From Candidatus Dormiibacterota bacterium (lineage in GTDB: Bacteria > Chloroflexota > Dormibacteria > Aeolococcales > Bog-877): 64,000 nt of DNA. Position numbers and translations under genes: made by a program. Shown here in pieces: positions 13,401 to 34,773 of the stretch. Under the pieces are notes generated by a model. That model was given only the letters and a program-made list of their open reading frames with translations. It was not told the origin of the DNA and did not search any database. Location: contig OY969577.1 of NCBI GenBank assembly GCA_963701235.1, positions 1,573,363-1,637,362 on the forward strand, read 5' to 3'. How positions within the stretch are numbered: position 1 is the stretch's first letter; each line of letters begins with the position of its first letter.

Positions 13401-13463
13401 TTACCCACCTCCTCCCGCATCGCAACTCACTCCAAGCAGGCCGACCAGCCTGACGCACGCAGC

Positions 13464-16544: not shown

Positions 16545-16721
16545 AGGACGAACCGCCAACAGCGAGGTGACGGCAATCGCACAAAGATCGGCGGGCTTCC
16601 GGTCCAACTGCTGAACCGCTCGGGGAGATTGCGACTTGGCGAGTCATCTGCAACCTCTGTGCCGGACCCGGGATCAGTCGCCTCGAAGGTAGTGTGCGGC
16701 CTCCGGCTCGACCGCCAACTG

Positions 16722-17159: not shown

Positions 17160-17257
17160 AACTCTAGGCCGCCGTCGGCGGCTACGCCGGATGCATCAGC
17201 CGCTTGGTTGCGAAGTCAGCCTTCTGCCTTCGTGACCCGCTCGTCCCGCCGGGATGC

Positions 17258-17692
17258 CTACCGGCGCTCGACCGCGGCCTTGAGTCCCTCCAGCACCGGA
17301 CCCCAGTTGTTTTCAGCCATCTTGTCGGCCTCTTCCTGGCTGGCGTTGTTGTCTTGCTTGACGGTGAGAGTGGTCGTGCCCTCCTCCCCGGCCAGCTCAT
17401 AAGTCACCGTGTGGTAATTGTCGGGCGTGTCCTCGGTGCCAGCCGTCGGGCTCCAGTGCGTCACCCTAAGCAGCTGGCGTGGTTTGACCTCGAGCACGCT
17501 GCCCTTGTCCTCGTAGGTACTGCCCTGCCACTCGCCTTTCCAGGTGATCGGGCTTCCGACCTGCCAGTCGGTCTCCATGTTCGTTCCGTACATGTATTGC
17601 CTCACCATCTCGGGGTCCGTCAGGGCCTGCCACACTGCATCGGCCGAGGCATTGATGGTGATCGACTTCTCAGCCACAAACGAATCTTTCAC
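17258..17692 (-). CDS. SRPBCC-family protein (Aha1/activator of Hsp90 ATPase homolog-like domain)
   Basis: 144 aa with the characteristic SRPBCC/AHSA1 pattern (INASADAVWQALTDPEMVRQY...GS..T..WKGEW). Confidence 0.6.
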   Translation of the reverse strand: MKDSFVAEKSITINASADAVWQALTDPEMVRQYMYGTNMETDWQVGSPITWKGEWQGSTYEDKGSVLEVKPRQLLRVTHWSPTAGTEDTPDNYHTVTYELAGEEGTTTLTVKQDNNASQEEADKMAENNWGPVLEGLKAAVERR

Positions 17693-17771
17693 GATCTCTT
17701 CATATCACTACCGCGGCACTGGCGTGCGGTTGGCCACTATCCTTGCCGGATTTGCGTGGCGAGTTTGGTTT

Positions 17772-20700: not shown

Positions 20701-21326
20701 TGACTCTGGGTCTGGATCCGGGAAGCGGTGTTGACCAGGTCACCCGCCACCATCCCCTGGCCTCTGGCTCCAAGATTGACTGCGGCCGTTCCGGTCAGCA
20801 CCCCGGCCCGGGCTGCCAGCCCAGGCGCCTTGACCTCCTCGCCCAGGGCGGCGACCGCTTCCACCAGGTCCAGCGCCGCCCGGACTGCCCGCTCGGCGTC
20901 ATCCTCCTGGGCCACCGGGGCTCCCCAGACCGCCATCACCGCGTCCCCGATGAATTTCTCAACTGTGCCGCCGTAGCGCTCGACCAACTCCCGGCAGACG
21001 TCGAAGTAACGGCTGAGCAGCTCTCGCACCTCTTCGGGGTCCCTCGACTCCGAGAGGGTGGTGAATCCCACCAAGTCCGCGAACAAGACCGACACCACTC
21101 GCAATTCGACCGTGTTGACGGCATCTGGCGGCGGCGAAGAGTAGGGCGCCGCCGCAGCTGACCCGCGGCCGGTGGCGCCTAGCGCTGCGCCACACTCGCG
21201 GCAAAACTTCTCCGTCGCGCCGTTGGCAAATCCGCAGGCGGCACATACCTGAGCTACCGCCGCGCCGCATTCGCCACAGAACTTGCTGCCCGGGATCGTC
21301 TCCGCCCTGCAGTTCGAGCAGACCAC
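17772..21326 (-). CDS. multidomain protein: tandem zinc ribbons, class III adenylate/guanylate cyclase domain, STAND/AAA ATPase, TPR repeats
   Basis: N-terminus CxxC...CxxC ×2. Cyclase catalytic motifs (VLFADLVGFT, EKFIGDAVMAVWGAP). P-loop (GIAGIGKS). A long C-terminal array of TPR-like helical repeats. No C-terminal LuxR HTH recognised. Confidence 0.8.
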   Translation of the reverse strand: MVCSNCRAETIPGSKFCGECGAAVAQVCAACGFANGATEKFCRECGAALGATGRGSAAAAPYSSPPPDAVNTVELRVVSVLFADLVGFTTLSESRDPEEVRELLSRYFDVCRELVERYGGTVEKFIGDAVMAVWGAPVAQEDDAERAVRAALDLVEAVAALGEEVKAPGLAARAGVLTGTAAVNLGARGQGMVAGDLVNTASRIQTQSQPGTVLVGESTKRVTEAAVAYQDVGTHELKGKAEPVPLYRALRVVAGRGGLLKSERLEAPFVGRDRELRLVKEVFHACTEDKRAHLLQVTGIAGIGKSRLAWEFFKYMDGLQSGYFWHQGRCLAYGQGVTYFALAEMVRGRAGILEAENRESAAAKLQAAVDEYVPDLEDRRFVFPRLAHLIGLEERTAPDKQDLFAAWRLFFERLAEQSPVLMVFEDMQWADPSLLEFIAYLMEWSRAYPLFVVSLVRPDVAATALAASTRNATSVHLEPLTPAAMDKLLTGLVPGLPKPLAERIRGRAEGIPLYAVETVRMLLDRGLLVEEGSAYRPTGQIDTLEVPETLQALIAARLDGMSPEERQLAQDASVLGKTFTLQGLAALSGHSENELGPILSTLVAKEVLSVQADPRSPERGQYGFLQDLVRTVAYETLSKRERRSKHLAVATYLERTRGRDAEEIVEVLASHYLEAWRLDPDEPGAREIKNKAREMLVRAAERAAALAAAEEAELAFVRAAELSESGLEQAALTERAGEMAELRGRPDEAASRYEEASRLFEAADNTRAAARVQARLAGAEWVRGHVEQAIERMQKAYSGLAGGRADPDLALVAAQLGRILALAGRYDEANPVLEEGLELAEHLELREVYSQALSSKAVSLMHSDRLDEAGVLLRRALEVALEDGLTAAAQRAYNNLAVALIAQDRWAESVAMDEQRLELAHRVGDRFWELTVLTGSLGSLINLGRWEEAEVQAETVRNAEEFESLETWTAALLALTTIDVHRGDLAKAKATIESMKSARSSEDWETKGEFAAAMAEVRRAEGSPAEALAAAEEFLATRAELGIGLTQSHVKRLLIKAVEAALDQGDLGRAHELLDTVRQAHSGQVTPWLRAQVARLGARLSTAAGQDDLVEPGFVAAEAGFRDLGAPFDLAVTQTEHAEWLLARGREDKAGPLRDLALGTFQSLQAHPWIERLGTPSARESASA

Positions 21327-21488
21327 CCACGCCTCCTTCAGAGCCCGACGCGCTCCGAATGGTAACGATCGAGGCCCGGGATCACGACACGGGTCCCGAT
21401 CAACGCGGCGACGCTAGCGGATCTTCTCATTGCCCAGCAAGTTGGCTGGGCGGTCCGAGGAACGACCCACTCACGCTTCGGACCAGGG

Positions 21489-21719
21489 TTGAGAGAGGAT
21501 CTGCAAATGGTCTGGGATTTGGGTGCCGCGCCCCCAATCGTGCCCTTGCTGCTGCTGACCGGCGCCGCGGGCTACTTCATTCCCACCTTCATAGCCATGG
21601 ACCGCCACCACCGGCGCGCCGCCGTGTTCGCGGTCAACCTGCTCTTGGGGTGGACCTTGATCGGTTGGTCAGTGGCCCTGGACATGGCACGCTCAGCGCC
21701 GCCGTCCCCGCCGACGTGA
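21489..21719 (+). CDS. superinfection immunity (Imm) family small membrane protein
   Basis: Matches the family signature YFIPTFIA...R.H......AVNLLLGWTLIGWSVAL. Start may be the internal Met (MVWDLG). Confidence 0.55.
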   Translation: MREDLQMVWDLGAAPPIVPLLLLTGAAGYFIPTFIAMDRHHRRAAVFAVNLLLGWTLIGWSVALDMARSAPPSPPT

Positions 21720-21781
21720 TCGGCCCCGGACTCGTCCATTTCAGCGACTTGAATAGCTCGCGTGACAGGCGGGTACCCGCC

Positions 21782-23011
21782 CTAGGCCGGCTTCACCGCC
21801 CGAACGATGGCGCTGAACATGCCGTCCGCCACCGGGTGACTCTCGATCACCTCGACGTCGGAGAAGCCCTGAGCTAGCAGAGCTTGGTGGTACTCGGACC
21901 GCGTCAACGCCCCCGCGATGCACCCGACGTAGCTGCCACGCTCCGCCCGCTCCTCGACCGAGAGCCGGTCCTCGGCGACCACGTCGGTTATCGCGAGCCG
22001 GCCGCCCGGGCGGAGCACTCGGAATGCCTCGCGCAAGACGGCGCTCTTGTCCGGCGATAGGTTGACCACGCAGTTGGAAAGAATCACGTCCACCGCCTCG
22101 GCCGGAAGCGGTACTGACTCGATCTCTCCCTTCAAAAACTCGACGTTGCTGGCGCCAGCCTCGCGTGCATTGGCTGTGGCCAGCTCCAGCATCTCGTCGG
22201 TCATGTCCAGACCGTAGACCTTGCCGCTCGCTCCCACCCGTCGGGCGCTGAGGAGCACGTCGACGCCAGCCCCGGATCCGAGGTGAAGGACGGTCTCGCC
22301 GTCGTGGAGATCCGCCACAGCCGTGGGGTTCCCGCATCCCAGGCTGGCCAGCAGCGCTCCCGCAGGCAAGCCCTCGCGGTCATCGTCGGCATAACTTGAC
22401 GCTCCGAACCCGTCCTCGACAATCGCCGATGCGCAGCAGGAGGCTTCGCGGCAAGAGGCGGTCGCCGCTCCCCCAGCTGCACGGGCTGCGGCTGCGTATT
22501 TGACACGGACTTGTTCTCGTAGAGCGGCCTTGGTGTCGGCCCCCGGCTGGGCGTTCGGCACAAGCTCCGCGAGAAGACCAAGGACTCGCCGATCAATTTC
22601 GTCTCTGATCCTCCGGATCTCCTCGAGAGACCTGCCTTCGGGATCCGCCACCTGCCAGTCCAGGTAGCGTTTGCCGGGGAAGAACGGGCAGGCGTCGCCG
22701 CATCCCATAGTCACCACCACGTCCGAGGCGCGGACCGCCCCGGCGGTCAGTAGCTTGGGAGACTCGCCGCCGAGATCGAGGCCGACCTCGGCCATGGCTC
22801 GTACTACTTCCGGGTTCACCTCGCTGGCAGGCTCAGAACCGGCCGATACGACGTCGAGATTGCCACCCGCGCGGGCGGCCAACAGCGCCGCCGCCATCTG
22901 AGAACGGCCAGCGTTGTGTACGCAGGCGAAGAGCACGCGCGGCACTGATCCCAACGTCGCCACCTCGGCTACCGAAGGCCAGCCATCACTGCGTAGGCTA
23001 CACCTATCCAT
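21782..23011 (-). CDS. fusion: arsenate reductase (LMW-PTP type ArsC) plus arsenite S-adenosylmethionine methyltransferase (ArsM)
   Basis: N-terminal CVHNAGRSQMA P-loop, CGDACP and DP motifs of thioredoxin-coupled ArsC. C-terminal SAM-MTase motif (VLHLGSGAGVD...VYGLDMTDEML) with ArsM-type conserved cysteines (CC, LGCGNP). Confidence 0.65.
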   Translation of the reverse strand: MDRCSLRSDGWPSVAEVATLGSVPRVLFACVHNAGRSQMAAALLAARAGGNLDVVSAGSEPASEVNPEVVRAMAEVGLDLGGESPKLLTAGAVRASDVVVTMGCGDACPFFPGKRYLDWQVADPEGRSLEEIRRIRDEIDRRVLGLLAELVPNAQPGADTKAALREQVRVKYAAAARAAGGAATASCREASCCASAIVEDGFGASSYADDDREGLPAGALLASLGCGNPTAVADLHDGETVLHLGSGAGVDVLLSARRVGASGKVYGLDMTDEMLELATANAREAGASNVEFLKGEIESVPLPAEAVDVILSNCVVNLSPDKSAVLREAFRVLRPGGRLAITDVVAEDRLSVEERAERGSYVGCIAGALTRSEYHQALLAQGFSDVEVIESHPVADGMFSAIVRAVKPA

Positions 23012-23121
23012 CGACGTTGGTCAATGGATAGAACAAGGTGGAGTCAGGTCCTCCGCTCGCACATTCGCACCCTATCCCTGCAGCCGCTGCAGCGGTGGTC
23101 GGTCTCGTGCCCTGGCGGCGT

Positions 23122-23685
23122 TTACAAGCGGCCGCGCGATGGTCGGGCAGCCCGCCCGCCGGTCGGGGCCGTGATGGTCGCCGCCCCCACCGTGACGAGA
23201 ACATCCCAGCTGTTCCGAAGCGAGATGACCAGAAGCAGGATGGTGACAGGGATCAGCTGGCCCAATCCCGATCGAAAGTCGCCCGCCGCCAGCAGCCCTC
23301 CGCTGGCGATGACGCCGAAGAACCCAAGTTCAATCAAGCCGAAACGCAGCAGCAGATGCCAGATGCTGATGGTGCGCTGCGTGCTCCGAACACCCGAGAT
23401 CAGGCTCGGTACCGTCAGCAAACAGGTGGCGGTCCCCAACCCGATGAGGGCGGCGCCAGTCGAGATGGCACTCTGGCCGGGTATCAGCATGAACAGGGCC
23501 AGCACCAGGGTTGCCGCGAAGCCGCTCAGGGTGACCCTCGCCAGACCCTGGACGTCGGGCCGCGATACCACCACTCGCAGGTGCAGGGCTAGACCCACGA
23601 AGAGAAGTCCGACGAGCCCCGCAGCCGCCTGGCCGGTGGTCGAGTAAAACGAGTGCCAGCTCTGAAGCGTCGCTTGGTAGGTCAA
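23122..23685 (-). CDS. hypothetical integral membrane protein
   Basis: Five to six TM helices. 4-nt overlap with the upstream DUF1801 gene. Confidence 0.4.
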   Translation of the reverse strand: MTYQATLQSWHSFYSTTGQAAAGLVGLLFVGLALHLRVVVSRPDVQGLARVTLSGFAATLVLALFMLIPGQSAISTGAALIGLGTATCLLTVPSLISGVRSTQRTISIWHLLLRFGLIELGFFGVIASGGLLAAGDFRSGLGQLIPVTILLLVISLRNSWDVLVTVGAATITAPTGGRAARPSRGRL

Positions 23686-24056
23686 CGCTTTCGAGCCAGT
23701 TTCTCAAGGCCTTCACCACCGCTCGATCTCACACGCTGCTGGATAAGTCTTCGGATCGCAGCTCGAGGCAGCGGTTGATTCAGAGGAAAGCGCAGTGTCG
23801 ACTTAGCCGACATGTTCCCCTCCAGCCCGACACCGCGCGCGTCCTCCAAGCTGAACGAATACAGGCCGATGTGCCGTGCATGCGCTTGGAAGTACGCGAG
23901 ACGACCACGCAGGTAGTAGGCGGGCATCCCGTAGCTGATGCCTTCGTCGGCCTCCGGCGCCGCGGTCCGAATGGTCTCCCGGAGCTCCTTCAGCATCGGC
24001 CGCGCAGCGTCAGATGCGGCTGCGATGTACTCGTCAATACTGCTGGGAGCACTCAC
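23682..24056 (-). CDS. DUF1801 (YdhG-like) domain protein
   Basis: IDEYIAAASDAARPMLKELRE...GMPAYYL pattern. Paralog of 5462-5839. Confidence 0.5.
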   Translation of the reverse strand: MSAPSSIDEYIAAASDAARPMLKELRETIRTAAPEADEGISYGMPAYYLRGRLAYFQAHARHIGLYSFSLEDARGVGLEGNMSAKSTLRFPLNQPLPRAAIRRLIQQRVRSSGGEGLEKLARKR

Positions 24057-24172
24057 GGCCCTCGAGCTTAACGCTCCCGTCGCTCGGACCCGGGCCTAGA
24101 GGGCAGAAACGACGGGTCTGGGGCGGGACGCTCCGACTATAAGCCGCGCACAGTCAGCGCCAATGCGCCTCT

Positions 24173-26282
24173 CTAGGTGCCCGCGGCGGCGAGGGGTCGC
24201 AGAGAAGCGGCAACAATGCCGTCCACATCCACCGGGCGTCCATACCAGTAGCCCTGGGCGAAGGCTACGCCGCCAAGCGAATTTAGGGTAGTCGCCTCGG
24301 CGCGGGTTTCCACGCCCTCGGCGATCAACTCGCTGCCGGTAACCCGCGCGAAGTGTGCTAACGCGACGATCATGGCCTGTCGAGCGGGATCCGAGTTCAC
24401 CCTACGGATGAGACCGATATCCACCTTGATGAAGTCAGGCTGGAGTTCCACGATGTGCTGGAAATTCGCGGTGCCGGCCCCCGCGTCGTCGACCGCGACT
24501 CGGACCGCCCCGAGTTGCTGGAGCGCGATTCGGATCGCCGCATAGTCGGTTATCACGTCGTGCTCAGTGATTTCCAGGACGAGGGGGCGATCGGACTGGT
24601 TCAGGATGGTCCGCACCCTGTCAGCCTGACTCAGGATTAGGGGTGAGGCGTTGACATTCAGCCAGAGGCCCGGGGGCAGGCCTCGGCCCACTCGGATCGC
24701 CAGCTCCAATGTGGCAAATTCAAGCTCCGCGCCCAGGCCCACGCTCCAAGCGGTGGAGAATTGGGTGTCGGGGGACTCCATCGCTGAACCGGGTCAGCGC
24801 CTCGTAGCCCACAACCTGGTGGGTCCTTACGTCGACAATGGGTTGGAAGACCGGCCGAAACGCCGTTGTGTCGATGATCGTCTGAATTCTGGCGTGGTGC
24901 TCAGCAGCGAGCTGTTCCGCATTCAGGTCGAGGGCCAGGAGGGTGCTGGCGGCAGAGCCAAACTCAGCGATTGCGGACAGGTTCTCGATAGTCGCCTCGG
25001 CCTTGGCGGGATTGACAGAGCCCACCAGAAGCACACCCAGGGTGTGCTGTCCATAGCAGATTGGTGCGTACGCCACGCTCTGCACATTTGCTTGTGTGAG
25101 CGTCTCTCCATAGGACCCGTCCTCAACTCGCTTCCTCCAGCGCTCCGCCCACGGCCCCTCGGCAGCACGCTCGATGAGGTAAGAGGCCCGCACGGCAGGC
25201 AGGTTGTCCCCGGCCGACACCGGGAAGCTCTCTCGAGCTGTGACGGCGAGCACGGTCGCGCCCCCAAGGGAAGTGAACACGATCAGCACAGAAAAGTCCG
25301 CCCCGTCCAAGCCGCAGAGTTCCCCGCAAATCGCCTTGGCCGTCTCCTCGGTAGTCTCTCCGGGCCGCAGCCGAGCGATCGCGCCCGCCACCTCCGCCCG
25401 GTCTCGGAGTTTTTGTTCCAGCTCCCAGTGGGCGGCCCGATCCTGGGTGACGTCCTGGCCCAGGATGACTGCACCGAGCGTGGCACCGGCGCGGTCCCGA
25501 AGCAAGATGGCGCTAACCACAACCGCTCGCCGAGTGCCTGACTGGGTCACGACTTCGGAGGCCACCGGGTGCTCTAAATCGCTGACCAGGAATCCTTCCG
25601 GCAGCGGCTGGCCGGGGGCAAGCCTGGTGCCAACTGGCAACAGATCGCAGACGGGACGCCCGATCAGATCGGCGTCAGCCCGGCCGCTCAGGGCGCACAG
25701 CGCCGGGTTTGCGTACGAGATGCATCCCTCTGTGTCGACGGTGGCCACGAATAGGTCGAAGCGCGTCAGCGTCTGACTGAACTGACCTTTAACCAACTCG
25801 CGTTGGCTGGCGCTGCGAAGGACCCCAAGAATCCTTCCGTCCTCAAGGCGGCGCTGCTCGATCTCAACGGCAATTGTTGTTCCGGTCTTGTGGCGGTAGC
25901 GGATCTGGGAGATCAACGAGGGATGGGCAGTGGATGCGGCCATGCGCTGGCGCTGGGCCTCCCGATCCTCGGGGGCAACCAGCATAGACAGAGGGGCACC
26001 AATCAGCTCGGAACGCGCGTAGCCCGTCAGCAACGAGGCACTGACGTTGACGTCAACGATCCGATGGGTCCGTGAGTCCGCAAGAAAGATCGAGTCTTTG
26101 GTTCGATCATCGGGGCTGCCCGCGCGGGTTGCTCCGTTCTCGGAGAGTCTGCGGGCCGACCTGTGGGCTGTCGCCAGGGTTCGCGGAGCCTTGCCGCGAG
26201 GCGCCCTACCCGGGTGGATCCGATCGGACGAAGCCGTGCCGCCCGACTTTTGGGGGCCCGGCAGCCGGCTTGAGCTGCCCAT
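24173..26282 (-). pseudogene. PAS/GAF sensor protein with C-terminal EAL (c-di-GMP phosphodiesterase) domain, interrupted by a frameshift
   Basis: ORF 24720-26282 has PAS/GAF regions and the start of an EAL domain (FQPIVDVRTHQVVGYEALTRF). The EAL domain continues in another frame in ORF 24173-24781 (PDTQFSTAWSVGLGAELE...EITEHD...DDAGAG...GYWYGRP). The frames switch near 24,750-24,790. Confidence 0.55.
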
Positions 26283-26546
26283 TGATCGAGCCTAGCCGCC
26301 TCACCCTCGGCGGGACATGACCAAGCCATCACGGTCCCATCTCAGTATCGGAAGCCATCCAAGGCCCTCGGCGGGCAGCCCAGCGGCGTTTGCCTGAACT
26401 ATCGCCCCGAGCCGCCCCACGATTTCGGCCTGGGATTAGCATGGACCCACTGTGTGAGCTGCCTAATCGAGCGGAGACCGGGACGCCCGGGGGCGCGGGC
26501 CATCCGGACCTTGCCCGCCGACCGGAGTCACAAAGAGGGACAGCAC

Positions 26547-26687
26547 CCGATGAGGCTCAGTACTCGGGTCGCGCTGCTGGTCGCCGGGGCGGCCATCGGT
26601 CGACGCCGCATCAGGCGGTTCCTCGCCCTGGTGGTGGTGGTCGTGGTGGTATTTATCCTGGTCCGGGTTAGCGGATTCACCCTTTAG
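26547..26687 (+). CDS. putative small hydrophobic peptide (46 aa)
   Basis: ATG preceded by AAAGAGGGA Shine-Dalgarno. Product MRLSTRVALLVAGAAIGRRRIRRFLALVVVVVVVFILVRVSGFTL. High GC3. Confidence 0.25.
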   Translation, partial: PMRLSTRVALLVAGAAIGRRRIRRFLALVVVVVVVFILVRVSGFTL

Positions 26688-26915
26688 CGTGTCGGGCACT
26701 TGTCTGGCTGAGGGAGTCGCCTGAAGTACATCGTCCTAACGGGTCTGTACTGCACCGCGGCCTGAGCCGTCTCCTCCCGCCCGATAGTCACCCTAAGAGG
26801 TGATGCAAAGGAACGACAGCGACTGGTACGCTCTTACACGTCTGCAGGGGTAGGAGAGAGGATTCGGGCCCAGCTTTCCCAGACTCAGTCGGCCAGAGGT
26901 CGGAGGGTCGAAGAG

Positions 26916-28751
26916 ATGGTATTTAGGTCACGCGGCTCTATCGAAAGGCTAGCTGCTGCCGGCGCGGCGGCCCTCCTGCTCGCGATGGCTTTGGGTGGCA
27001 ATCCCACTGTGGCACGGGCCAGCGGCGGCTCCGGTGGGACAGCGACTTTTGCACTGCCTCCCAGCGAGACGCCAAATGACGTCTTTCCGTTCGTCAGCGG
27101 CAATCTAGGTAATAACGTCGATTTCCTGCAGTTCTCGCCGTTGCTATATCGGCCACTGTACTGGTACGGGATTAACGGGATGCCTACGATCAACTACCAG
27201 CAGAGCCTTGGCGAACCTCCACGGTTCAGCAACGGCGGGAAGACCGCCACGGTCACCCTTAACCGAAAGTTCACTTGGTCAGACGGACGCCCCGTCACCA
27301 ACAGGGACGTGGAATTGTGGATGAACATCCTCACCACGGAGAAGTCGAACTACTTTGGTTACGCGGTAGGGAGCATTCCCGACGACGTCACATCGATGAG
27401 TTTCCCCGCGAACACTCCCTACCAGTTCAGTCTCACTTTCAACAAGGCTTACAGTCACCTTTGGCTCCTCTACAACCAGCTCAGTGAGATCGTCCCGCTG
27501 CCGTCCCAGCTCATGGATCGCACATCTGCCTCCGGCCCGGTTGGTAACTACGACACCACTGCGTCTGGCGTGATTGCCGTCTACAACTACCTCAATTCCC
27601 AGGCCCAGGATCTCGCCACCTACGCGACCAATCCGCTTTGGAAGGTCGTCGACGGACCTTGGCTGATCGACTCCTACAGTTCAACCACTGGAGAGGCTAG
27701 CTTCGTTCCCAACGACAAGTACACCGGCCCGGGCAAGCCGAAACTTGCGAAGTTTGAGGAGCTACCCTTCACCAGCGATGCAGCGGAATTCGACGCGCTG
27801 CGTGCCGGTGAGGTCGACTACGGGTACCTGCCCGCGGAGGATCTCTCGCAGGAGAGCTACTTCACCAAGCGCGGATACAAGGTGGTGAAGTGGGTCGACT
27901 TCGGCTTCAACGGTGCGTTCTACAATTTCACCAATCCCAAGACCGGTCCGATATTCAAGCAGCTGTATATTCGCCAGGCCTTCCAGAAGTTGGTCAACCA
28001 GCCGCAGATCGTCAAGGACGTCTATCACGGTCTGGCACTTGCCCAGTACGGTCCAATTCCGTCGATTCCAGTCAATCCCTACTCATCTAAGAAGGTTGCG
28101 GATAACCCCTACCCCTTCAGCGTCGCCGGCGCCAAGAACTTGCTCTCAAGCCACGGCTGGACGGTTCACCCGGGCGGGATCGACGTTTGCTCCAAGCCCG
28201 GCGCAGGTTCTGGGCAGTGCGGAGCCGGAATCGCCAAGGGCGCGCAGTTGAACTTCAGCTTCGAAGTAGCGAGTGGGTCTCCCCCGTTTCTCGCCGAGGT
28301 TGAATCCATGCAATCCGACTGGTCCGACGCCGGCATCCATGTGACTCTGTTGCAGCACCCCCCTGATGAGATCTACGCGACCGCCATCCCCTGCGTCAAT
28401 GGCGGTCCTGGCTGCTCCTGGGACATGGCCGATGGCGGAGCACCTGGATTCACGGCCACCTACTCACCCGAGTACCTGCCGATCGGAACGCAATGGTTTG
28501 CCAGCAATGGGGGGACCAACGCTGGGGGGTACGACAGTCCGGAGATGGATTCTCTTATCGACACGGCAGGCACCGACTCTTCGCCTACGGCCATCCAAGC
28601 CATCGGTGTGTACGGCGCTGAGAACTTGCCTAACCTTTGGGAACCGAACTATCCCTACCAGCTCTCGGTGATCAGCCCCAAGCTCCACGGCGCGCTGCCA
28701 CAGGACCCCAATCTCAACCTGTATCCGCAGAACTGGACGCTGAGTTCGTAG
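26916..28751 (+). CDS. secreted ABC-transporter solute-binding protein, family 5 (peptide/nickel/oligosaccharide type)
   Basis: Signal peptide, size (611 aa), and scattered SBP_bac_5 landmarks. Lower GC and different codon use than its neighbours. No adjacent permease or ATPase genes. Confidence 0.55.
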   Translation: MVFRSRGSIERLAAAGAAALLLAMALGGNPTVARASGGSGGTATFALPPSETPNDVFPFVSGNLGNNVDFLQFSPLLYRPLYWYGINGMPTINYQQSLGEPPRFSNGGKTATVTLNRKFTWSDGRPVTNRDVELWMNILTTEKSNYFGYAVGSIPDDVTSMSFPANTPYQFSLTFNKAYSHLWLLYNQLSEIVPLPSQLMDRTSASGPVGNYDTTASGVIAVYNYLNSQAQDLATYATNPLWKVVDGPWLIDSYSSTTGEASFVPNDKYTGPGKPKLAKFEELPFTSDAAEFDALRAGEVDYGYLPAEDLSQESYFTKRGYKVVKWVDFGFNGAFYNFTNPKTGPIFKQLYIRQAFQKLVNQPQIVKDVYHGLALAQYGPIPSIPVNPYSSKKVADNPYPFSVAGAKNLLSSHGWTVHPGGIDVCSKPGAGSGQCGAGIAKGAQLNFSFEVASGSPPFLAEVESMQSDWSDAGIHVTLLQHPPDEIYATAIPCVNGGPGCSWDMADGGAPGFTATYSPEYLPIGTQWFASNGGTNAGGYDSPEMDSLIDTAGTDSSPTAIQAIGVYGAENLPNLWEPNYPYQLSVISPKLHGALPQDPNLNLYPQNWTLSS

Positions 28752-28816
28752 TCACCTAGGCGCCGGCGCTCGTTTCCGAAGTTTCGATGCAACCCCTAGG
28801 CCAGCGCGGCTAGAAC

Positions 28817-29362
28817 CTAGACGTTGGCGGCGAAGGCCTGCCGGAGCCAGTCCACCACTGCTTCGTCGACGTCCGTCACGGCGGTCAGCGCGATCCGGGC
28901 GTTGACGTAGTCGTTGCCGAGGCCGGGTGCAGTCAGCAGCCGCCCTTTGGGGAGGGCGCCGGGGAGGCGCAGTCCCAGGTCGAGCCGGTCGCGCGTCGAC
29001 GCCCGAATTAATGCGAACGTCCGCCTCGGAGTCAGCAGAGTGATGTAAGTCTTGCGTGGCTGCACTTCGACCTCGCCCACCTGTACCGCGCGTGCTAGCA
29101 GCTCGTCGAGGATGGGTCGGAGCTTCGGCCGGTCAGCGTACTGGCCGTCGATGAGCTCGCCGCTCGTGGCGAGGAGGAAGTCGGGATATCCGAAGCGCTC
29201 CCACACGATCAGCATTTGCGGATATCCGGTGACGCCCTGCTCGTTGAGCCAGGTTCGCAGGCGCTGTTGGTCAATGTCGCCGAGGGCGCCGACTCGAGAC
29301 ATCCACGGGGCGAGCCCTTCGCCGGTGCGGCGCTCGAGGCTCTTCTCGATTCTCTCCCGCAT
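28817..29362 (-). CDS. DUF4287/DUF5655 domain protein
   Basis: Start taken at MRERIEKSLERRTGEGLAPWM (DUF4287-like). The C-terminal part resembles DUF5655. The track ORF extends further upstream across integrase-remnant DNA, which is probably not coding. Confidence 0.5.
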   Translation of the reverse strand: MRERIEKSLERRTGEGLAPWMSRVGALGDIDQQRLRTWLNEQGVTGYPQMLIVWERFGYPDFLLATSGELIDGQYADRPKLRPILDELLARAVQVGEVEVQPRKTYITLLTPRRTFALIRASTRDRLDLGLRLPGALPKGRLLTAPGLGNDYVNARIALTAVTDVDEAVVDWLRQAFAANV

Positions 29363-29439
29363 CTGAGCCCATGAGCGTGGTGGAACCGGCGGCGGCGCGT
29401 CGCTCGCGGCGGACTCCGGCACGTCTCGCAGTATGCCTA

Positions 29440-29520
29440 AGCGCCCAGCGGACCGGGGCGGGGCGGCGCCAGCTACGCGAGACCAGTGACCGCTTGGGTG
29501 AACTGTTGCGCCGACCGGCC
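29440..29520 (+). pseudogene. short 3' remnant of a tyrosine-recombinase gene (second family)
   Basis: Encodes ...RQLRETSDRLGELLRRPA. The last 12 aa are identical, with a nearly identical nucleotide sequence, to the C-terminus of the integrase remnant at 33150-33497. Confidence 0.35.
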
Positions 29521-29564
29521 GCACCGGCCAACTGGCGCTTCACTGGGTGGGTGGGTCCGCGCCC

Positions 29565-29610
29565 CTTGTCAAGTTATATTGACAAGGTCTGTTCGTCAAG
29601 ATATATTGAC
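29565..29610. promoter_or_regulatory. two adjacent palindromic operator-like sites in an AT-rich promoter region
   Basis: CTTGTCAAGTTATATTGACAAG (29565-29586) and GTCAAGATATATTGAC (29595-29610) are perfect inverted repeats built on a TTGACAA half-site. The second ends 3 nt before the ATG at 29614. Confidence 0.5.
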
Positions 29611-29613
29611 AAC

Positions 29614-29922
29614 ATGAATTCAATCTCGATCACAGAGACAACCGATGCTCTCAACCGACAACTGGGCGAAGTGGTTGCCACCGACCCCATGGCCGTACTG
29701 GCCGCGCTCAAGGCCGTTCACACCGTGGTGGCCCACAGGGAACGGGAGGCGGTATCAGCCGCTCTGGTTGACCACACGTTCCGGGAGATCGGCGACGTCC
29801 TGGGGGTCTCAAAACAGGCGGTCTTTCAACGATTCGGTAAGGACTGGGCCGTCACCAGCAAGGCCCAGATGTCCAAGACAGATTGGAAGCAGCAGGTCAA
29901 GCAAAAGCTGGTCGGCCCGTAA
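29614..29922 (+). CDS. small HTH DNA-binding protein (102 aa)
   Basis: C-terminal HTH resembling sigma-70 region-4 or small-regulator folds (TFREIGDVLGVSKQAVFQRFGK). Sits directly behind the palindromic operators. Confidence 0.5.
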   Translation: MNSISITETTDALNRQLGEVVATDPMAVLAALKAVHTVVAHREREAVSAALVDHTFREIGDVLGVSKQAVFQRFGKDWAVTSKAQMSKTDWKQQVKQKLVGP

Positions 29923-30005
29923 ATCTGCCCGGCTGGCACCATCTCTCGCCGCTTTAGTTCCTCCTCTTCGGCGAGACTCGTCGGCGGAGTTCCACCCAAA
30001 GAAAA

Positions 30006-30036
30006 AGGGCCGGGGCGATTGGGGTTGCCCGGCCCA
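30006..30036. terminator. GC-rich hairpin between convergent genes (bidirectional terminator candidate)
   Basis: GGGCCGGGGC-gattggggtt-GCCCGGCCC, a 9-bp stem, located between the HTH gene (+) and the zinc-ribbon gene (-). Confidence 0.45.
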
Positions 30037-30143
30037 GATTAGCGCCGAAGCGGGTTCCCAGAAGCGATCTTTGAATTCTCAGACCGCCTCAGCGCGACAA
30101 AACTGGTTCATCCCCGGGTCGGCGGGGTTGCTGCCGGCCTTGG

Positions 30144-30323
30144 TCAGTCGCGGGAGGGTTGAGCTCCGACCGAAGCTGGCTGTACTTCAACCCAGTTGAT
30201 CTCGCGTCCACAGGCCGGGCAAGATCCGAATTGCTCGCCGTCGGTGGCCGTGATCCGGGCCTTGCAGACATCGTCGCCTTCGTAGATCCCTGACTCCAGG
30301 CATATCTCGCTCGACATGGGCAT
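30144..30323 (-). CDS. small zinc-ribbon protein (59 aa)
   Basis: Not in the ORF track (below the length cut-off). ATG-initiated, high GC3. Product MPMSSEICLESGIYEGDDVCKARITATDGEQFGSCPACGREINWVEVQPASVGAQPSRD, with C...C...CPAC metal-binding spacing. Confidence 0.35.
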   Translation of the reverse strand: MPMSSEICLESGIYEGDDVCKARITATDGEQFGSCPACGREINWVEVQPASVGAQPSRD

Positions 30324-30693
30324 GGCCTTTCTCCAGGACCGTCCGCCCCTCCCCAGAGGCTGACTTGGGCGGCCCAGACACCGAGCCTATCTCGTGCTAG
30401 TCCGCCAGCGTCTAGCCGAAGTGACTATAGGGTGACGCCGCAAAATCCAAGGCCGGGAGGACACGCTCCCGGTCGGTGGCAGCGCGTTGTTGCTTCGCGT
30501 TCCCCCGGGCACTGTCTCTCTGGGGTCGGCCTGAGCACCATGTCAAGCTTGCTCGGCCACACCAGGGTCAGCTTCATCCCCTCGACCTAAGGAAGCTATC
30601 AGTGCCACTGCCCACAGCGGGCCATCTCGGGGGGTGGATCCGTGACCGGAAGCGTTAGCTGGGGCTCGACTACTGACGCCGCCCAGCGGCTTG

Positions 30694-30717
30694 CTATTTC
30701 GGCAAGTGGCGAAATAG
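30694..30717. promoter_or_regulatory. inverted repeat upstream of the ArsR-family regulator gene (candidate ArsR/SmtB operator)
   Basis: CTATTTCG-gcaagtgg-CGAAATAG, a perfect 8-bp arm inverted repeat ending 10 nt before the GTG start at 30727. Confidence 0.45.
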
Positions 30718-30726
30718 ACTGAGGCC

Positions 30727-31032
30727 GTGTCCGGGCAAGTCTTTACCGACGATCTCGATGACGCGCTCCGGGCGCTCTCCCATCCCACCCGGCGAGCCAT
30801 CATCCGACTCACGACCCCAACCGACGTGCCTGCGACGGAGCTGGCCGAAGAACTCGGCATCGCCCCGGCGACCGCCTCAGAGCACCTCCGAGTGCTCCAC
30901 AGAACCGGCCTGATCGAGCTCACCGCCACGGGCACCTGGCGCCGCTACCAGGCTGTGCCCGCCCGGCTCGAAGCGGTGGTCGATGCCCTCATCCAAGACC
31001 TCCGCACCCAAAACAACAAGGAGCAGTCATGA
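30727..31032 (+). CDS. ArsR/SmtB-family transcriptional regulator
   Basis: HTH_20 pattern (LSHPTRRAIIRLT....ATELAEELGIAPATASEHLRVLHRTGLI). 4-nt overlap with the downstream gene. Confidence 0.75.
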   Translation: MSGQVFTDDLDDALRALSHPTRRAIIRLTTPTDVPATELAEELGIAPATASEHLRVLHRTGLIELTATGTWRRYQAVPARLEAVVDALIQDLRTQNNKEQS

Positions 31033-31745
31033 CCGCACGACTCGCCCACTTCGAGATCCTCGGGCCCGACGACCGATCCTTGGTCGCCTTCTACCACGAC
31101 CTGCTGGGCTGGCCGACGGACAGCCAAGGACCTGGCTACACCCTCGTGCACCTCGAGGGCGGACCCGGCGGGGCCATAATCGAATCCCCCGACAGCCGGG
31201 TCACCCTGGACGTCACCGTAGCCGACCTCGACGCCACCGTGGCCCGAGTCAGAGACCTCGGCGGTCAGATCCCCATGCCGACCCGGAAGGCAACGCCCTC
31301 TCGCCCATCCAAGACCGCCCATCCCCAGACCGCTGAAATGCCCGCCGGCTACTCAGGCACCCCCCAGGCCCGGAAACTCGGCGTCAAAGCTCAACAGCGT
31401 GTGTCGCTCGACCGGCCCCCGGATGGATGGTCACTCACCGACCCGCCCGCCGACCTGACCTATGTCGAGGCGCCTGAGCCCGCCGATGTCATCATCGGCT
31501 TCTTCACCGCCTCGGAACAGCTCCCGTGGCGCCTCCCGGAGCTAACCCGACGCATCTACCCTTCGGGTGCCCTGTGGATCGCCTGGCCGCGAAGAGCGGG
31601 CGGCCACGAGAGCGATATCACCGACAACATCGTCCGTAGCCACGCTCTGGCCCTCGGAGTAGTCGACATCAAGGTCGCCGCCATCGACCACGACTGGTCC
31701 GGGCAACGAGTGGTGTGGCGCATCTCCAACCGCAACCAGCCATAA
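31029..31745 (+). CDS. fusion protein: N-terminal VOC/glyoxalase-family domain plus C-terminal DUF3052 domain
   Basis: N-terminus HFEILGPDDRSLVAFYHDLLGW (VOC). The region from GYSGTPQARKLGVK to the C-terminus matches the DUF3052 family pattern. Confidence 0.55.
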   Translation: MTARLAHFEILGPDDRSLVAFYHDLLGWPTDSQGPGYTLVHLEGGPGGAIIESPDSRVTLDVTVADLDATVARVRDLGGQIPMPTRKATPSRPSKTAHPQTAEMPAGYSGTPQARKLGVKAQQRVSLDRPPDGWSLTDPPADLTYVEAPEPADVIIGFFTASEQLPWRLPELTRRIYPSGALWIAWPRRAGGHESDITDNIVRSHALALGVVDIKVAAIDHDWSGQRVVWRISNRNQP

Positions 31746-31772
31746 CAGAACAGATCCACCAGAGGTGCGGGC

Positions 31773-32288
31773 TTGATCCTCCCGAAAGACCGCGACCCTC
31801 GCTTCGTGACGATCCGACGCGGTGGGACCCTCACCGATTCGGATCACCAGCTTCTCGCGCTGTGGGCAGCAGCGTGCGCGGAGCACGTCCTTGACCTCTT
31901 CGAGTCGGCTCAGCCCGAGGACCCGCGCCCACGTCGCGCGATCGAACTCGTGCGGGCCTGGGCGCGCCGCGAAATCACGATGACCCAAGCTCGCGCGGCG
32001 GCCGGCCATGCAATGGCCGCGGCCAGAGACCTGCGTGGGGCAGCACGTCATGCCGCGTACGCTGCCGGCCAGGCCGCGGCCGTCGCCCACGTCGCCGCGC
32101 ACGAGCTCGGCGCGGCCGCCTACGCGATCAAGGCTGTGCGTGCTACCGCGCCGGAAGGAGAGGGCGAGCGCGCGGGGCGAGTCGAGTGCCGGTGGCAGCG
32201 CGACCAGCTCCCGGAGGCGATTCGCGAGCTCGTACTCGACGACCAGCGGTTGCGGGACGACATCTGCTGGTCGGTGTTCGGCTCCTGA
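31773..32288 (+). CDS. hypothetical alpha-helical protein (resembles putative immunity-protein families)
   Basis: 171 aa, Ala-rich helical repeats. No confident family assignment. Confidence 0.4.
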   Translation: MILPKDRDPRFVTIRRGGTLTDSDHQLLALWAAACAEHVLDLFESAQPEDPRPRRAIELVRAWARREITMTQARAAAGHAMAAARDLRGAARHAAYAAGQAAAVAHVAAHELGAAAYAIKAVRATAPEGEGERAGRVECRWQRDQLPEAIRELVLDDQRLRDDICWSVFGS

Positions 32289-32573
32289 CCAGCTGTCGGC
32301 AAGGATTCAGTTATCTGAGTGGAGCGATCAAATTGGTCACTCAGTTCCTCCAGCCGTGAGAGATCAAGAGGGCAGCTGCCAAAGGCAAGGCGGTAATGGG
32401 CCTCCAGGCCGAGGTGAGGGCTTCACTCATAGCGGGCGCCCGTCGGTAGACTTCGAGCACCGCTTTGGGATCCCCCCTCGGCGGTTTCTGGGCCTGGCAG
32501 CCCAAATGTCGCGGCCCTTGTTTGGTGGCCGACGATTCGCGGTGCTTAGCGCCAGGGGGAAGGAGAAAGGGTC

Positions 32574-33074
32574 ATGAGTCTCATCGACGGGGCGCTGACT
32601 GCCAATGCAACCATCGCCAATGACTTCGATTCCAACCGTGGGAAGCCACCGAAGCCCCAGATCGCGATCGTCACCTGTGCGGATCCTCGGCTAACCAAGA
32701 TCGGGCAGATGTTGGGTCTGGCCGACGCCGATGTCGACATGATCAGGAACGTCGGCTCCGTGATCGATGACGACTCGATCCGGTCGCTTGTCGTCTCGAC
32801 CAGGGTGCTGGGCAGCAGGGAAATAATGATCATCAACCACACTGGCTGCGGGATGACAACGTTTGCCGACGCAGAGCTAGAGGACCGGCTTCGCGAGGAG
32901 ACGGGGCGGGCGCCGACTGCACCAGCCAGGTTCTACAGCTTCACTGACGTCGAGCAGAACACCAGGGAGCAGATTGAGAAGGCCAGGTCTCATCCATGGA
33001 TCTCGCAGGACGTTCCGGTCAGGGGCTTCATCTATGACGTCAACACCGGGCGGCTCAGTGAGGTCTCTGCATGA
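32574..33074 (+). CDS. beta-class carbonic anhydrase
   Basis: Zinc ligands CADPR and HTGCG. Strong SD (AAGGAGA) upstream. Confidence 0.7.
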   Translation: MSLIDGALTANATIANDFDSNRGKPPKPQIAIVTCADPRLTKIGQMLGLADADVDMIRNVGSVIDDDSIRSLVVSTRVLGSREIMIINHTGCGMTTFADAELEDRLREETGRAPTAPARFYSFTDVEQNTREQIEKARSHPWISQDVPVRGFIYDVNTGRLSEVSA

Positions 33075-33149
33075 CCCGGAGACAACCTAATCGTCTGACC
33101 CTGGGCCCAACCTGCCCTCCTCGCGGCAGAAGCCTTCGAAGGTCGCAAG

Positions 33150-33497
33150 CTTCACCACCGATCGAGGCCAGCCGCGGAGCGGGGCTGCGATCAGCCACGC
33201 CTTTCAGTCGGCGCTCGCCAAGGCAGGGCTCCCGGTGATGCGCTGGCACGACTTGCGGGCGGTCTACGGGCCCTCCTGCTCCAAGCCGGGACGGACATCA
33301 GTGTCGTCTCCAAGATGCTCGGCCACTCAGCCGTCGGGGTCACAAACAGGCACTACGCCGGCGTGGGCGAGGCCCTCGGTCGACAGGCCAGCGACCGCTT
33401 GGGTGAGCTGCTGCGCCGCCCCGCTTGGCAGCTAAATGACGCTCTCCCCACGGGCTTGGGGTCGTTCCCGAATGCTTCGAGGAGGGCGCTGCATTGA
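33150..33497 (+). pseudogene. 3' remnant (about 100 codons, frameshifted) of a tyrosine-recombinase gene
   Basis: Conceptual translation across two frames gives ...AFQSALAKAGLPVMRWHDLRAVYG..LLLQAGTDISVVSKMLGHSAVGVTNRHYAGVGEALGRQASDRLGELLRRPA. This is the HDLRH ... LGHS ... Y catalytic C-terminus with no N-terminal domains. Confidence 0.55.
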
Positions 33498-33609
33498 CGA
33501 CCGAATAACCTCAACCATCTAAACGAGGTCCGATAAGTATGGACGACGGGAGCCCTGTGCCCAGCGTAGAGCGAGTCTGCGGCATCAGCTGACCCTGCCC
33601 GGGATCGGG

Positions 33610-34266
33610 CTACTGGAGGAACAGAGGCTGATAGAGGAAGAACGGCGTCGGGGGGTTCCACAATGTACCGTCGACGTAGCAGTAGACGACACCGTAGTAG
33701 TTGCCCGGGCCAGGTGATCCTGCCGCCGTTGGCCACCCCACAGTCGCGGATGCTACCCGATCTGGCGGAAGCGTGACTTGAGTCGACCCAGGAGGCAAAG
33801 CAGCCTTAGAACTCCAGGTCACGTCAGCCCAGAGGCTCGGAGGAACTGTCGGATTACCGCCGAGCGCGAACGGTAACGCCCCGTGGGTTATTAGCACCCA
33901 ATAGGACACCGTCTCAGCCGTGGAAGACACTTTCCGCAAGTAAACCGAGATGAACGGGTCCGTGGTTGGGGTGATGGTGCGGGGCACTTCCTGCAGCACG
34001 TTCGAGGGTTGCGGGCCGGTCAGCATCCCATACCACTTAACCGAGAAAGGGAGCATGTCCGGGACCACGGAGGCGCCGTTCCCACTCGGGATAGCGGCCT
34101 CGCGCAGAAGCCGGGGATGGGCGTCGCGAGCAAAGCCGGTGAGTTGGGGCGGTTCATACCCGTGATCGTGGCTGGGCAAGGTCGCAGGCGCCGCACAGCT
34201 AGCGACAAAAAGGAGGGCCAACGGCAGAACCGGCGCCAAGACGTTCCGAGCCCTGAGTCTGTCAGT
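33610..34266 (-). CDS. hypothetical secreted lipoprotein
   Basis: Signal peptide with lipobox (LALLFVASCAAP). Lower-GC gene. No recognisable domain. Confidence 0.4.
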   Translation of the reverse strand, partial: TDRLRARNVLAPVLPLALLFVASCAAPATLPSHDHGYEPPQLTGFARDAHPRLLREAAIPSGNGASVVPDMLPFSVKWYGMLTGPQPSNVLQEVPRTITPTTDPFISVYLRKVSSTAETVSYWVLITHGALPFALGGNPTVPPSLWADVTWSSKAALPPGSTQVTLPPDRVASATVGWPTAAGSPGPGNYYGVVYCYVDGTLWNPPTPFFLYQPLFLQ

Positions 34267-34701
34267 CATCTCGAGCCTGCCCAGCGCGACCTTAGCACCA
34301 CTATTCCCCTCAGAGCGAGGGTGGGCGAGAGACGCGAGTCTCACGTATTTATATGACGTTGGGTGGGCCAGCGACGTTCCCTAGGTCGGCTGCCGAGATA
34401 CGAGTGGACGGCGAGGTTAGGTCCCCACCCCCTATGCCACGGTTCATCGCCAGTGTGTCGGGCAGCCGTCCGAAAAGCAATCGTTCGGCGCTGCTCCGGC
34501 CCACTACGATTCAGCCTCTGACCCCCGAAGAAACCGCGTCGTGAGATCAAATCGACAAATTGGCTCACTTCCAGAGCAGCGGTTTACGACCTAGCTGTCG
34601 ATTTTGTGCCAAGGCGGAGCGACCCCAAGTTGACCCCCAAGGGACACTCGAACCCTGCTAAACGCTGACACACCCTGACGGGGTTTTGATCTTGAAAACG
34701 G

Positions 34702-34773
34702 AGCCGACGCGGGGATTCGAACCCCGGACAAGCGGTTTACGAAACCGCTGCTCTACCACTGAGCTACGTCGGC
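34702..34773 (-). tRNA. tRNA-Thr (anticodon CGT)
   Basis: 72-nt cloverleaf with acceptor GCCGACG/CGTCGGC, D-arm GCTCAGTGGTAGAGC, anticodon loop TTCGTAA, and T-loop TTCGAAT. Confidence 0.85.

Follow-up and report, generated by a model that had tools for sequence, protein, structure and literature searches.

Integrase relics beside tRNA-Thr(CGT) in a Candidatus Dormibacterota genome: a probable remnant of a tandem array of integrative elements

Introduction

The locus considered here raises the question of whether a set of genes lying among integrase fragments next to a tRNA-Thr(CGT) gene is an island with definable ends, a piece of ordinary chromosome, or the residue of a longer series of integrations. 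It is part of a 64,000-nucleotide (nt) stretch of contig OY969577.1 (hereafter the window; coordinates are those of this stretch unless another contig is named), whose source organism, an uncultured soil bacterium, is placed in Candidatus Dormibacterota by its ClpB homologues. A sequence-only reading of the window had proposed that positions 29440-34773 form a mosaic island, bounded by two integrase remnants, inserted at the tRNA-Thr gene at its right edge, and accompanied by a degenerate inverted copy of part of that tRNA. The tRNA gene is borne out by ARAGORN and Rfam (Table 1), and the variability observed among relatives agrees with the view that horizontally acquired, mosaic DNA lies beside it, while the proposed limits, the number of remnants and the character of the inverted copy all require revision. 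As argued below, the region is likely to be what decay has left of a tandem array, now immobile, of three or more integrative elements, each belonging to one temperate-phage-like family of Dormibacterota that targets tRNA-Thr(CGT).

A recurrent integration hotspot beside clpB

Neighbourhoods of clpB were compared between the window and relatives whose ClpB proteins are 86-91% identical (contigs L091/L092, L093, L094, L095, L180/L181 and L182). On the clpB side of the tRNA gene, more than 12 kb of gene order (PNP, methyltransferase, MaoC, ThuA/GFO, GFO, cellulase, a hypothetical gene, DnaK, alpha/beta hydrolase, ClpB, tRNA-Thr) is perfectly kept between the window and seven relatives, the shared block being shorter at its far end in L180/L181, where the contigs end. 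A tRNA-Thr(cgt) gene is present in all of these relatives, and the order DnaK-ClpB-tRNA-Thr is retained even at the depth of the phylum, in L001 (ClpB 66% identical), the sole useful contig from a ClpB search of genome contigs that returned mostly distant phyla and a best match of 66%.

Past the tRNA gene, the DNA is different in every relative examined (L091, L093, L094, L095 and L180), and the break in synteny falls exactly at the tRNA 3' end or at the arm adjoining it. The genes found here in the window are missing downstream of tRNA-Thr in all seven relatives as far as their contigs extend, a distance that is very short for L181 and L182. Several public assemblies that are at least 99.9% identical to the window across the region carry the same arrangement; these are conspecific and uninformative on island status, and a look-up with the carbonic anhydrase-like (CA) protein encoded in the region returned only such assemblies, at an identity of at least 99.9%. 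Because the DNA past the tRNA differs in every relative, this DNA is not a conserved gene block, and the tRNA-Thr(CGT) gene beside clpB is a hotspot at which integration has recurred in Candidatus Dormibacterota.

The variable stretch is also more than three times as long as the island originally proposed. An ancestral flank, Lactamase_B-MIP-(hypothetical)-AMP-binding-Abh-tRNA-Gln, occupies 9.8-16.5 kb of the window, and L094 and L180 carry the same flank just beyond their own tRNA-Thr inserts, homology ending at window positions 16510-16536. Because these two relatives place the ancestral flank beyond their inserts, the variable interval of the window extends from 16537 to 34699 (about 18 kb), and position 29440 is not its limit. 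No attachment-site (att) or integrase traces were found in the outer 13 kb (16537-29439).

Three integrase tails and an intact relative

Identification of an intact relative of the integrase fragments provides the key to the layout of the region. An initial search with a 98-amino-acid (aa) reconstruction of the larger fragment (relic B) returned 8 short fragments only, all from Dormibacterota or unnamed metagenome contigs; intact genes were reached with a profile of these fragments together with pseudogenes reconstructed from contigs L096 and L097. The intact integrases of the family are 373-389 aa in length and contain PF14659, PF22022 and PF00589. The closest to the window, P0129 (389 aa), is carried by L178 (1-10329; Logan contig SRR11596703_96776), whose element is also represented by L179 (Logan contig ERR14365101_42942), and IMG/VR holds no close relative of the L178 integrase (30% identity at best). 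Because L178 also encodes a terminase large subunit, a primase/helicase, an Xis-like HTH_17 protein and a Cro/CI pair beside the integrase, it appears to be an intact, prophage-like element, and its tRNA-Thr att core, along with its 88% nt identity to the relic in the window, would assign it to Dormibacterota. At its contig edge the integrase (int) stop codon is followed by a P arm of ~200 nt and then by the tRNA-Thr 3' end, such that int lies at the tRNA-proximal end of the element.

Compared with this gene, the window holds three separate int tails, visible both in alignment and by tblastn (relics A, B and C; Table 1). Using tblastn, P0129 matches 33121-33437 at 70-91% identity (aa 284-389) and 29440-29532 at 61% (aa 359-389; E=2.5e-5). 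At the nucleotide level, L178 9811-10087 is 88.4% identical to window 33149-33424 (relic B) and L178 10056-10105 is 90% identical to window 29488-29537 (relic A), the latter being 83% identical to L096 as well. Stitched across its frameshift, relic B matches positions 97-166 of the 172-position Pfam profile Phage_integrase PF00589 (E=4.9e-10). Taken together, these matches uphold the proposal that both remnants are integrase C-termini of one family. The two are alignable with one another as a direct repeat (29480-29519 versus 33385-33424; 40 nt, 85%, repeat finder), and their strongest local alignment covers 31 nt with 90% identity (blastn-short, E=2.7e-5 within the window). They also have the 12 C-terminal residues SDRLGELLRRPA in common, as claimed, whereas the description of their nucleotide sequences as near-identical overstates the case. 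The first repeat copy translates as TSDRLGELLRRPAAPAN and the second as a frameshifted C-terminus, ...FTTDRGQPRSG..WHDLRAVYG / ALLLQAGTDISVVSKMLGHSAVGVTNRHYAGVGEALGRQASDRLGELLRRPAWQLN. Relic C, a third tail overlooked in the sequence-only reading, ends in ..AAPAHY where the intact gene ends in AAPAN*. The family is distinct from, though related to, the integrase at tRNA-Gln, which is 47% identical to relic B over 72 aa.

Relic B has been damaged by a 5' truncation against the CA gene, a ~190-nt internal deletion near 33150 and a frameshift near 33270; an 18-22-nt piece at 33134-33155 corresponds to mid-integrase sequence of L096 and L097. WHDLR, LGHS and HY are kept, the N-terminal two thirds are gone, and because the box I arginine region is deleted this evident homologue of tyrosine recombinases would be unable to act. 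Relic B also has its own diverged tail and arm start, 83% identical to L097 3684-3764. A 'type 2' post-stop sequence, ACGCTCTCCCCA..GGGGT..CCCGA.TGCTTCGAGGAGGGC (window 33438-33491; L097 3700-3764), was observed only in relic B and in the L097 relic, and is unrelated to the type 1 P arm described below. The possibility that 33425-34488 is a clean insertion splitting one integrase tail was considered and is ruled out by this diverged tail and arm start, as in L097.

Recognition of the relics corrects the public annotation of the locus. An open reading frame (ORF) of 183 aa (29371-29922, + strand), annotated in the conspecific contigs L081 and L082, runs in frame through relic A and a pair of operator palindromes into a small helix-turn-helix (HTH) gene, and the annotated 'protein' thus fuses an integrase relic to that gene; the real HTH start is probably the ATG at 29614, behind a promoter at 29579-29607. 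Similarly, ORFs at 33.3-33.5 kb, including one of 60 aa, are pieces of the integrase pseudogene.

The tRNA-Thr 3' half and the P arm

The arm that follows the integrase gene in the intact element is found in the window joined to the tRNA gene. Window 34489-34727, beginning in relic C, is 79% identical to L178 10085-10329 (blastn), where the arm comes directly after the integrase gene, and the P arm is 75% identical to L096 10215-10449, there too directly 3' of the integrase gene. In L096 a longer integrase pseudogene is followed directly by a homologue of window 34515-34747, containing the tRNA 3' half only, and then by unrelated sequence or arm; no full tRNA is found in L096.

Alignment of the tRNA genes demonstrates that the 5' half is identical in the window, L091, L093, L094 and L095 (the distant L001 differs), while the 3' half occurs as two alleles with compensatory T-stem changes, one in the window and L091 and the other in L093, L094 and L095. 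The window's 3'-half allele and the adjoining 190-nt arm are common to the window, L091 and element-borne copies, and are not found on the chromosomes of L093, L094 and L095. Specifically, L091 carries the window-type allele in its tRNA along with the same arm (85% over 203 nt, tRNA included) and, 6 kb away, a displaced 3' half of the common allele followed by a different (P') arm with tandem TGACCCACA repeats. Such a pattern is what would be left by an element that brings in its own 3' half and pushes the resident one outward and, because the T arm differs between the two L091 copies while the anticodon stem-loop is shared, the crossover would have to lie in the anticodon stem-loop. Displaced 3' halves are present in two further relatives: a 4.8-kb island in L180 is closed by one, directly followed by Lactamase_B-MIP, and a 2.4-kb island in L093 ends with another. 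These two islands, of this or another element family, are alike in form.

A conserved tRNA-like block in the P arm

Within the P arm, 115 nt past the tRNA-Thr 3' end, lies a 23-mer (34563-34585) that is complementary to 34742-34764 at 19 of 23 positions, with a 13-nt exact core. The inverted tRNA-like copy noted previously does, then, exist, and to call it degenerate is misleading, as no other block of the arm is conserved so well. Alignment of four P-arm loci (window, L178, L096 and L091) gives GAGCAGCGGTTT (34574-34585) as the longest invariant run, between flanks that are only 75-85% identical; a fifth locus, L097, has one change in this 12-nt core. Next in degree of conservation are the second of the tandem repeats, AGTTGACCC/CAAGGG, and the bases directly adjoining the end of the tRNA; the arm as a whole is most conserved at GAGCAGCGGTTT and in the tandem TGACCCNCAAG repeats. 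The tandem arm motif is also found across the core, in the P' arm, in L097 and at the displaced junction of L091. The block can equally well be described as repeating 34724-34742 in direct orientation, with 16 of 19 positions matching (family D18), and pattern searches locate one half-site in the block and one on either side of the anticodon stem (Table 1). Rfam, which reports nothing besides the tRNA gene, does not call the block a tRNA. Its make-up suggests the joining of the D-side flank with the loop in T-side orientation, as in a stand-alone core-type half-site.

Were the 23-mer a functionless leftover, in decay, of a tRNA-Thr duplication in inverted orientation or of an inversion that once took place between att sites, its inverted match to the D-stem plus anticodon-stem of the tRNA and the 9-bp inverted repeat that flanks it in the window would both be explained. 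However, that 9-bp repeat is not conserved in L178 or L096, the position of the block between int stop codon and core is constant, and its loop part fits better in the direct orientation, as expected of a half-site and not of a gene fragment. Together with the invariance of the 12-nt core in four independently diverged arms, these observations make a decaying relic unlikely. The block is better viewed as a conserved component of the element's attachment site (attP), and probably constitutes an additional core-type integrase-binding half-site. More tentatively, the invariant block, as an anticodon-stem half-site plus overlap-like sequence, might be a functional third core-type site, which the integrase of a hitherto undescribed family of Dormibacterota temperate phages would use for synapsis or for recombination direction. 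If true, the block and the arm repeats would define an att system and an integration hotspot for an uncultured phylum in which neither has been described before.

Proposed history and alternative explanations

From the anatomy of the region, its homologies and the variability among relatives, all of which were observed directly, we infer a sequence of events that takes its element layout from L178 and its integration products from L091, L180 and L093. A live element would encode a tyrosine integrase of ~380 aa, with an N-terminal arm-binding region, that recombines an attP arranged as int, P arm (~200 nt), core and P' arm. The core would be the 48-49-nt 3' half of tRNA-Thr, from anticodon stem to 3' end, and because the crossover would occur in the anticodon stem-loop, the 3' half of the element would join the working tRNA while the chromosomal 3' half would be displaced to the far end of the island. 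In the window, the tRNA would then have a 3' half of element type next to a P arm that is still intact, the integrase of that element having been reduced to the 19 nt of relic C, with earlier elements pushed outward and eroded to a C-terminal pseudogene (relic B) and a tail of ~55-98 nt (relic A). Cargo would have survived between the relics, comprising the lipoprotein gene and then the CA, Imm5-like, ArsR-VOC, zinc-ribbon and HTH genes, the last with its operators, whereas internal cores, displaced tRNA fragments and P' arms would all have been deleted. At least three stacked elements are implied because int lies at the tRNA-proximal end in the element layout and three integrase tails are present, so that each relic would mark the proximal end of a separate decayed element; and because displaced tRNA fragments and P' arms have been lost, nothing in the window should be able to excise any more. 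The relics, proposed originally as the bounds of an island, are better read as internal landmarks of a decayed array.

Two other explanations of the region deserve consideration. The 40-nt repeat is direct and flanks a compact gene set, as would be the case for a single 3.9-kb element (29.5-33.4 kb) in which A is attL, B is attR and the repeat is an att site as opposed to a pair of gene relics. Both copies are nevertheless in-frame integrase 3' ends that resemble the intact L178 gene (88-90%) more closely than they resemble each other (85%), relic B continues upstream as integrase coding sequence for a further ~280 nt while relic A does not, and the att core of the family is demonstrably the tRNA-Thr 3' half; an element of this kind is largely refuted by these findings and must be regarded as extremely improbable. 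Alternatively, the genes between the relics may be ordinary chromosomal genes of the lineage, with the integrase fragments as incidental scars and the differences among relatives a matter of general synteny loss. Consistent with such a possibility are the genome-typical guanine-plus-cytosine (GC) content of the ArsR, VOC and Imm5-like genes (67-71%), the guanylate-cyclase block, which shows that chromosomal DNA has moved into the interval, and the finding of the same arrangement in all conspecific assemblies. However, gene order on the ClpB side is intact and breaks exactly at the tRNA 3' end or arm, and chromosomal origin is not readily reconciled with the presence of ArsR-VOC beside integrase relics, and beside a tRNA-Thr half too, in other genomes (two in the case of the relics), with the 59-62% GC of the HTH, CA, zinc-ribbon and lipoprotein genes, or with the occurrence of the CA family in phage genomes. 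We therefore consider this explanation improbable, if less so than the single element.

The decayed tandem array, favored here, also has several observations weighing against it. There are three integrase 3' ends and no internal tRNA gene (tDNA) fragments, and the history of the array is thus reconstructed from integrase tails alone. Pattern search, blastn-short and Smith-Waterman alignment with both alleles detected no displaced tRNA 3' half within the 64-kb window, so that the direct repeat of this half anticipated at 29.4-34.8 kb is absent, and P' arm motifs and arm repeats yielded nothing above chance elsewhere in the same 64 kb. Relics of 19 and ~55 nt need several independent deletions, each ending inside the int 3' end. 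The type 2 arm start of relic B has been traced only to L097, and may indicate a variant element, or recombination in place of integration at this site. None of the window genes in 29.4-34.7 kb matches the phage genes of L178, and the movement of the guanylate cyclase block into the variable region means that some of the 'cargo' could be relocated chromosomal DNA. Additionally, the relatives compared number five to six, all of them metagenome assemblies.

Genes between the relics and in the outer variable region

Table 1. Positions of the features discussed, in window coordinates
Feature	Position	Strand	Evidence
tRNA-Thr(CGT), intact	34700-34773	-	ARAGORN; Rfam tRNA, 72.9 bits
Attachment-site core (identity segment): tRNA-Thr 3' half, element-type allele	34700-34748		
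Half-site 3, D-side of anticodon stem, AGCAGCGGTTTCG	34740-34752	-	Pattern search
Half-site 2, T-side of anticodon stem, ACAAGCGGTTTAC	34728-34740	+	Pattern search
P arm, type 1 (DNA between integrase stop codon and tRNA 3' end in intact element)	34508-34699	+	Similarity to L178, L096, L091
Tandem direct repeats CGACCCCAAG / TGACCCCCAAG(GG), candidate arm-type integrase-binding sites	34620-34643	+	Conserved in window, L178, L096, L091
Half-site 1, AGCAGCGGTTTAC	34575-34587	+	Pattern search
tRNA-like block: third copy of anticodon-stem half-site plus loop, AGAGCAGCGGTTTACGA	34563-34589	+	Inverted repeat I3, direct repeat D18
Relic C: last ~19 nt of integrase gene, continuous with P arm	34489-34507	+	blastn to L178; manual alignment reading
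Segment of ~1 kb between relics B and C, with lipoprotein-like gene 33610-34269 (or to 34344), lipobox ..FVASC	33492-34488	-	ORF list
Relic B: integrase pseudogene, C-terminal third	~33105-33491	+	PF00589, tblastn
Beta-carbonic-anhydrase-like gene (CA)	32574-33074	+	PF00484, E=1e-12; phrog_26042, E=2.6e-30, full length
Imm5-like putative immunity protein gene	31773-32288	+	PF21805, E=5.6e-38
ArsR-type regulator and VOC/glyoxalase (DUF3052-like C-terminus), two-gene module	30727-31745	+	Pfam; DUF3052 sub-threshold, E=0.02
Zinc-ribbon mini-protein gene, 59 aa	30144-30323	-	ORF; annotated in public assemblies
Small HTH gene	29614-29922	+	Weak HTH matches in Pfam, PHROGs
Operator-like 18-nt palindromic repeats, 29568-29585 and 29595-29612	29568-29612	+	Family D15
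Relic A: last ~31 integrase codons, well conserved over last ~55 nt only; DUF5655-HTH intergenic region	29440-29537	+	tblastn, nt identity
Outer variable region: AHSA1-like, guanylate-cyclase/AAA/TPR, LMWPc-methyltransferase, DUF1801, PAS-EAL, low-GC SBP_bac_5, DUF5655	16537-29439		Pfam, synteny, GC
tRNA-Gln	9776-9851		ARAGORN

The gene labels given in the sequence-only reading are largely those found in Pfam (ArsR-type HTH, glyoxalase/VOC, Imm5_like and beta-CA), with the exception of DUF3052, which remains below threshold. No structural, lysis, replication or lysogeny module of a prophage was found at 29.4-34.7 kb, where PHROG matches are limited to the HTH, Imm5-like and CA families, whose functions are accessory or unknown. 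The region was also said to be of locally lower GC content, and this is true to a slight degree (63.9% versus 66.2% for the window, with 17% of equal-sized windows as low); the decrease is uneven, individual genes ranging from 59% (HTH) and 60% (CA) through 67% (ArsR and VOC) to 71% (Imm5-like).

Closest to the tRNA, the lipoprotein-like protein matches no Pfam or PHROG family, and the segment that contains its gene is missing between int and arm in both L178 and L096; this segment may be what survives of the cargo that the tRNA-proximal element carried. For the ArsR-VOC pair, a metagenome scan with the VOC protein gave mostly matches to the C-terminal domain only, and L098 and L099 alone were useful, both of them short metagenome contigs in which the pair recurs at 86-91% aa identity beside integrase relics. 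L099 carries the pair next to a tRNA-Thr 3' half as well, without a full tRNA, and has the zinc-ribbon gene beside ArsR in inverted orientation. This recurrence supports cargo status for at least the ArsR-VOC module. At the outer end, the operator repeats overlap the sigma-70-like promoter, which is near-consensus (11/12 matches).

Two further observations concern the remaining genes. The CA-like protein is matched over its full length by phrog_26042, a family of phage proteins whose function is unknown. Six independent short-read contigs (L083, L084, L086, L087, L088 and L090) end within 32081-32274, inside the Imm5-like gene, and no repeat that would explain these breaks was found in the window; local GC is ~72%, and a drop in coverage is the probable cause, with strain heterogeneity as an alternative.

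A guanylate-cyclase/AAA_16/TPR gene (17772-21326, - strand) lies in the window between tRNA-Thr and the Lactamase_B...tRNA-Gln block, and in L094 just beyond tRNA-Gln, from which it follows that a chromosomal rearrangement is superimposed on the variable region. Comparison of window 16537-21326 with L094 20698-22682 and L180 16186-19816 shows two chromosomal blocks swapped in order between the two tRNA integration hotspots, in the same orientation. The SBP_bac_5 gene (26916-28751, + strand) is lower in GC than anything else in the region, at 58.9% overall and as little as 55% in sub-windows, and no ABC permease or ATPase gene adjoins it; it is probably foreign as well. A PAS-PAS-GAF-EAL gene (24173-26282, - strand) is broken into two ORFs both in L081 and in the window, whereas L082, which is 99.9% identical, has one undivided gene of 703 aa, the split probably being a frameshift error of long-read assembly or a very recent pseudogene.

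Elsewhere, an integrase C-terminal relic at 4017-4115 (+ strand), 67% identical to residues 274-306 of the tRNA-Gln integrase, lies ~5 kb from the intact gene for that protein (8779-9705), and suggests a second decayed array at tRNA-Gln. On the clpB side, L093 has a 458-aa Pyr_redox_2 gene (12783-14304) between clpB and tRNA-Thr, where a spacer of ~60-110 nt is found elsewhere.

Comparison with known systems

Islands with a regenerated tDNA plus a displaced fragment, attP sites centred on the anticodon, and tandem arrays have been described with the Islander approach (PMC4383910). The family described here resembles Islander class 'A' (PMC4383910) in its tyrosine integrase, in regeneration of the gene by an element copy of the tRNA 3' half, in the displaced 3' fragment at the far end observed in L091, L093 and L180, in repeated integration at one tDNA, and in a crossover that would fall in the anticodon stem-loop. 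Like such islands, the window has an intact, regenerated tRNA gene with an element-derived 3' part and genes that are absent from relatives. Unlike them, it retains only the proximal arm and core, with no displaced fragment and with pseudogene relics A, B and C in place of an intact integrase. Software of the Islander type would consequently not call the window, and the array becomes visible only through its three integrase 3' tails.

Heterobivalent integrases of the lambda type, as studied for lambda and the mycobacteriophage L5 attP, bind both arm-type and core-type sites. The family integrase is similarly built, its SAM-like and catalytic domains being preceded by an N-terminal extension (PF14659, PF22022 and PF00589), and the short tandem direct repeats in both arms and the inverted-repeat core from the anticodon stem are, by their conservation, candidate binding sites of the two types. 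In contrast to lambda and L5, the P arm contains, ~115 nt away from the core, a conserved extra copy of the core half-site together with sequence that resembles the overlap, and we know of no direct precedent for such a copy inside a P arm.

The closest comparison is with L178. Relics B and A are 88% and 90% identical to its integrase gene and the P arm is 79% identical, and the two loci have the same tRNA-like block, tandem repeats and tRNA-Thr target. They differ in that the window is without the lysogeny and replication modules and the terminase, and in that L178 carries the common T-arm allele and the window the variant one.

tRNA-targeted integrative elements and their decay products are a well-described class, and all features of the window fit it. 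A tyrosine integrase, replacement of the 3' half, and tandem accretion followed by decay make up a textbook mechanism that will not surprise specialists; the DNA downstream of the tRNA is a graveyard of genomic islands of an ordinary kind, has ceased to be a mobile element and is best called a remnant array. The integrase family, the att layout and L178 are likewise new instances from an uncultured phylum and not a new kind of system. A full-text literature search combining Dormibacterota and prophage returned no paper whose title or abstract contains either word. Few mobile elements have been described for the phylum, and the locus and its relatives provide the attachment-site layout of a temperate-phage-like family together with an apparently intact representative.

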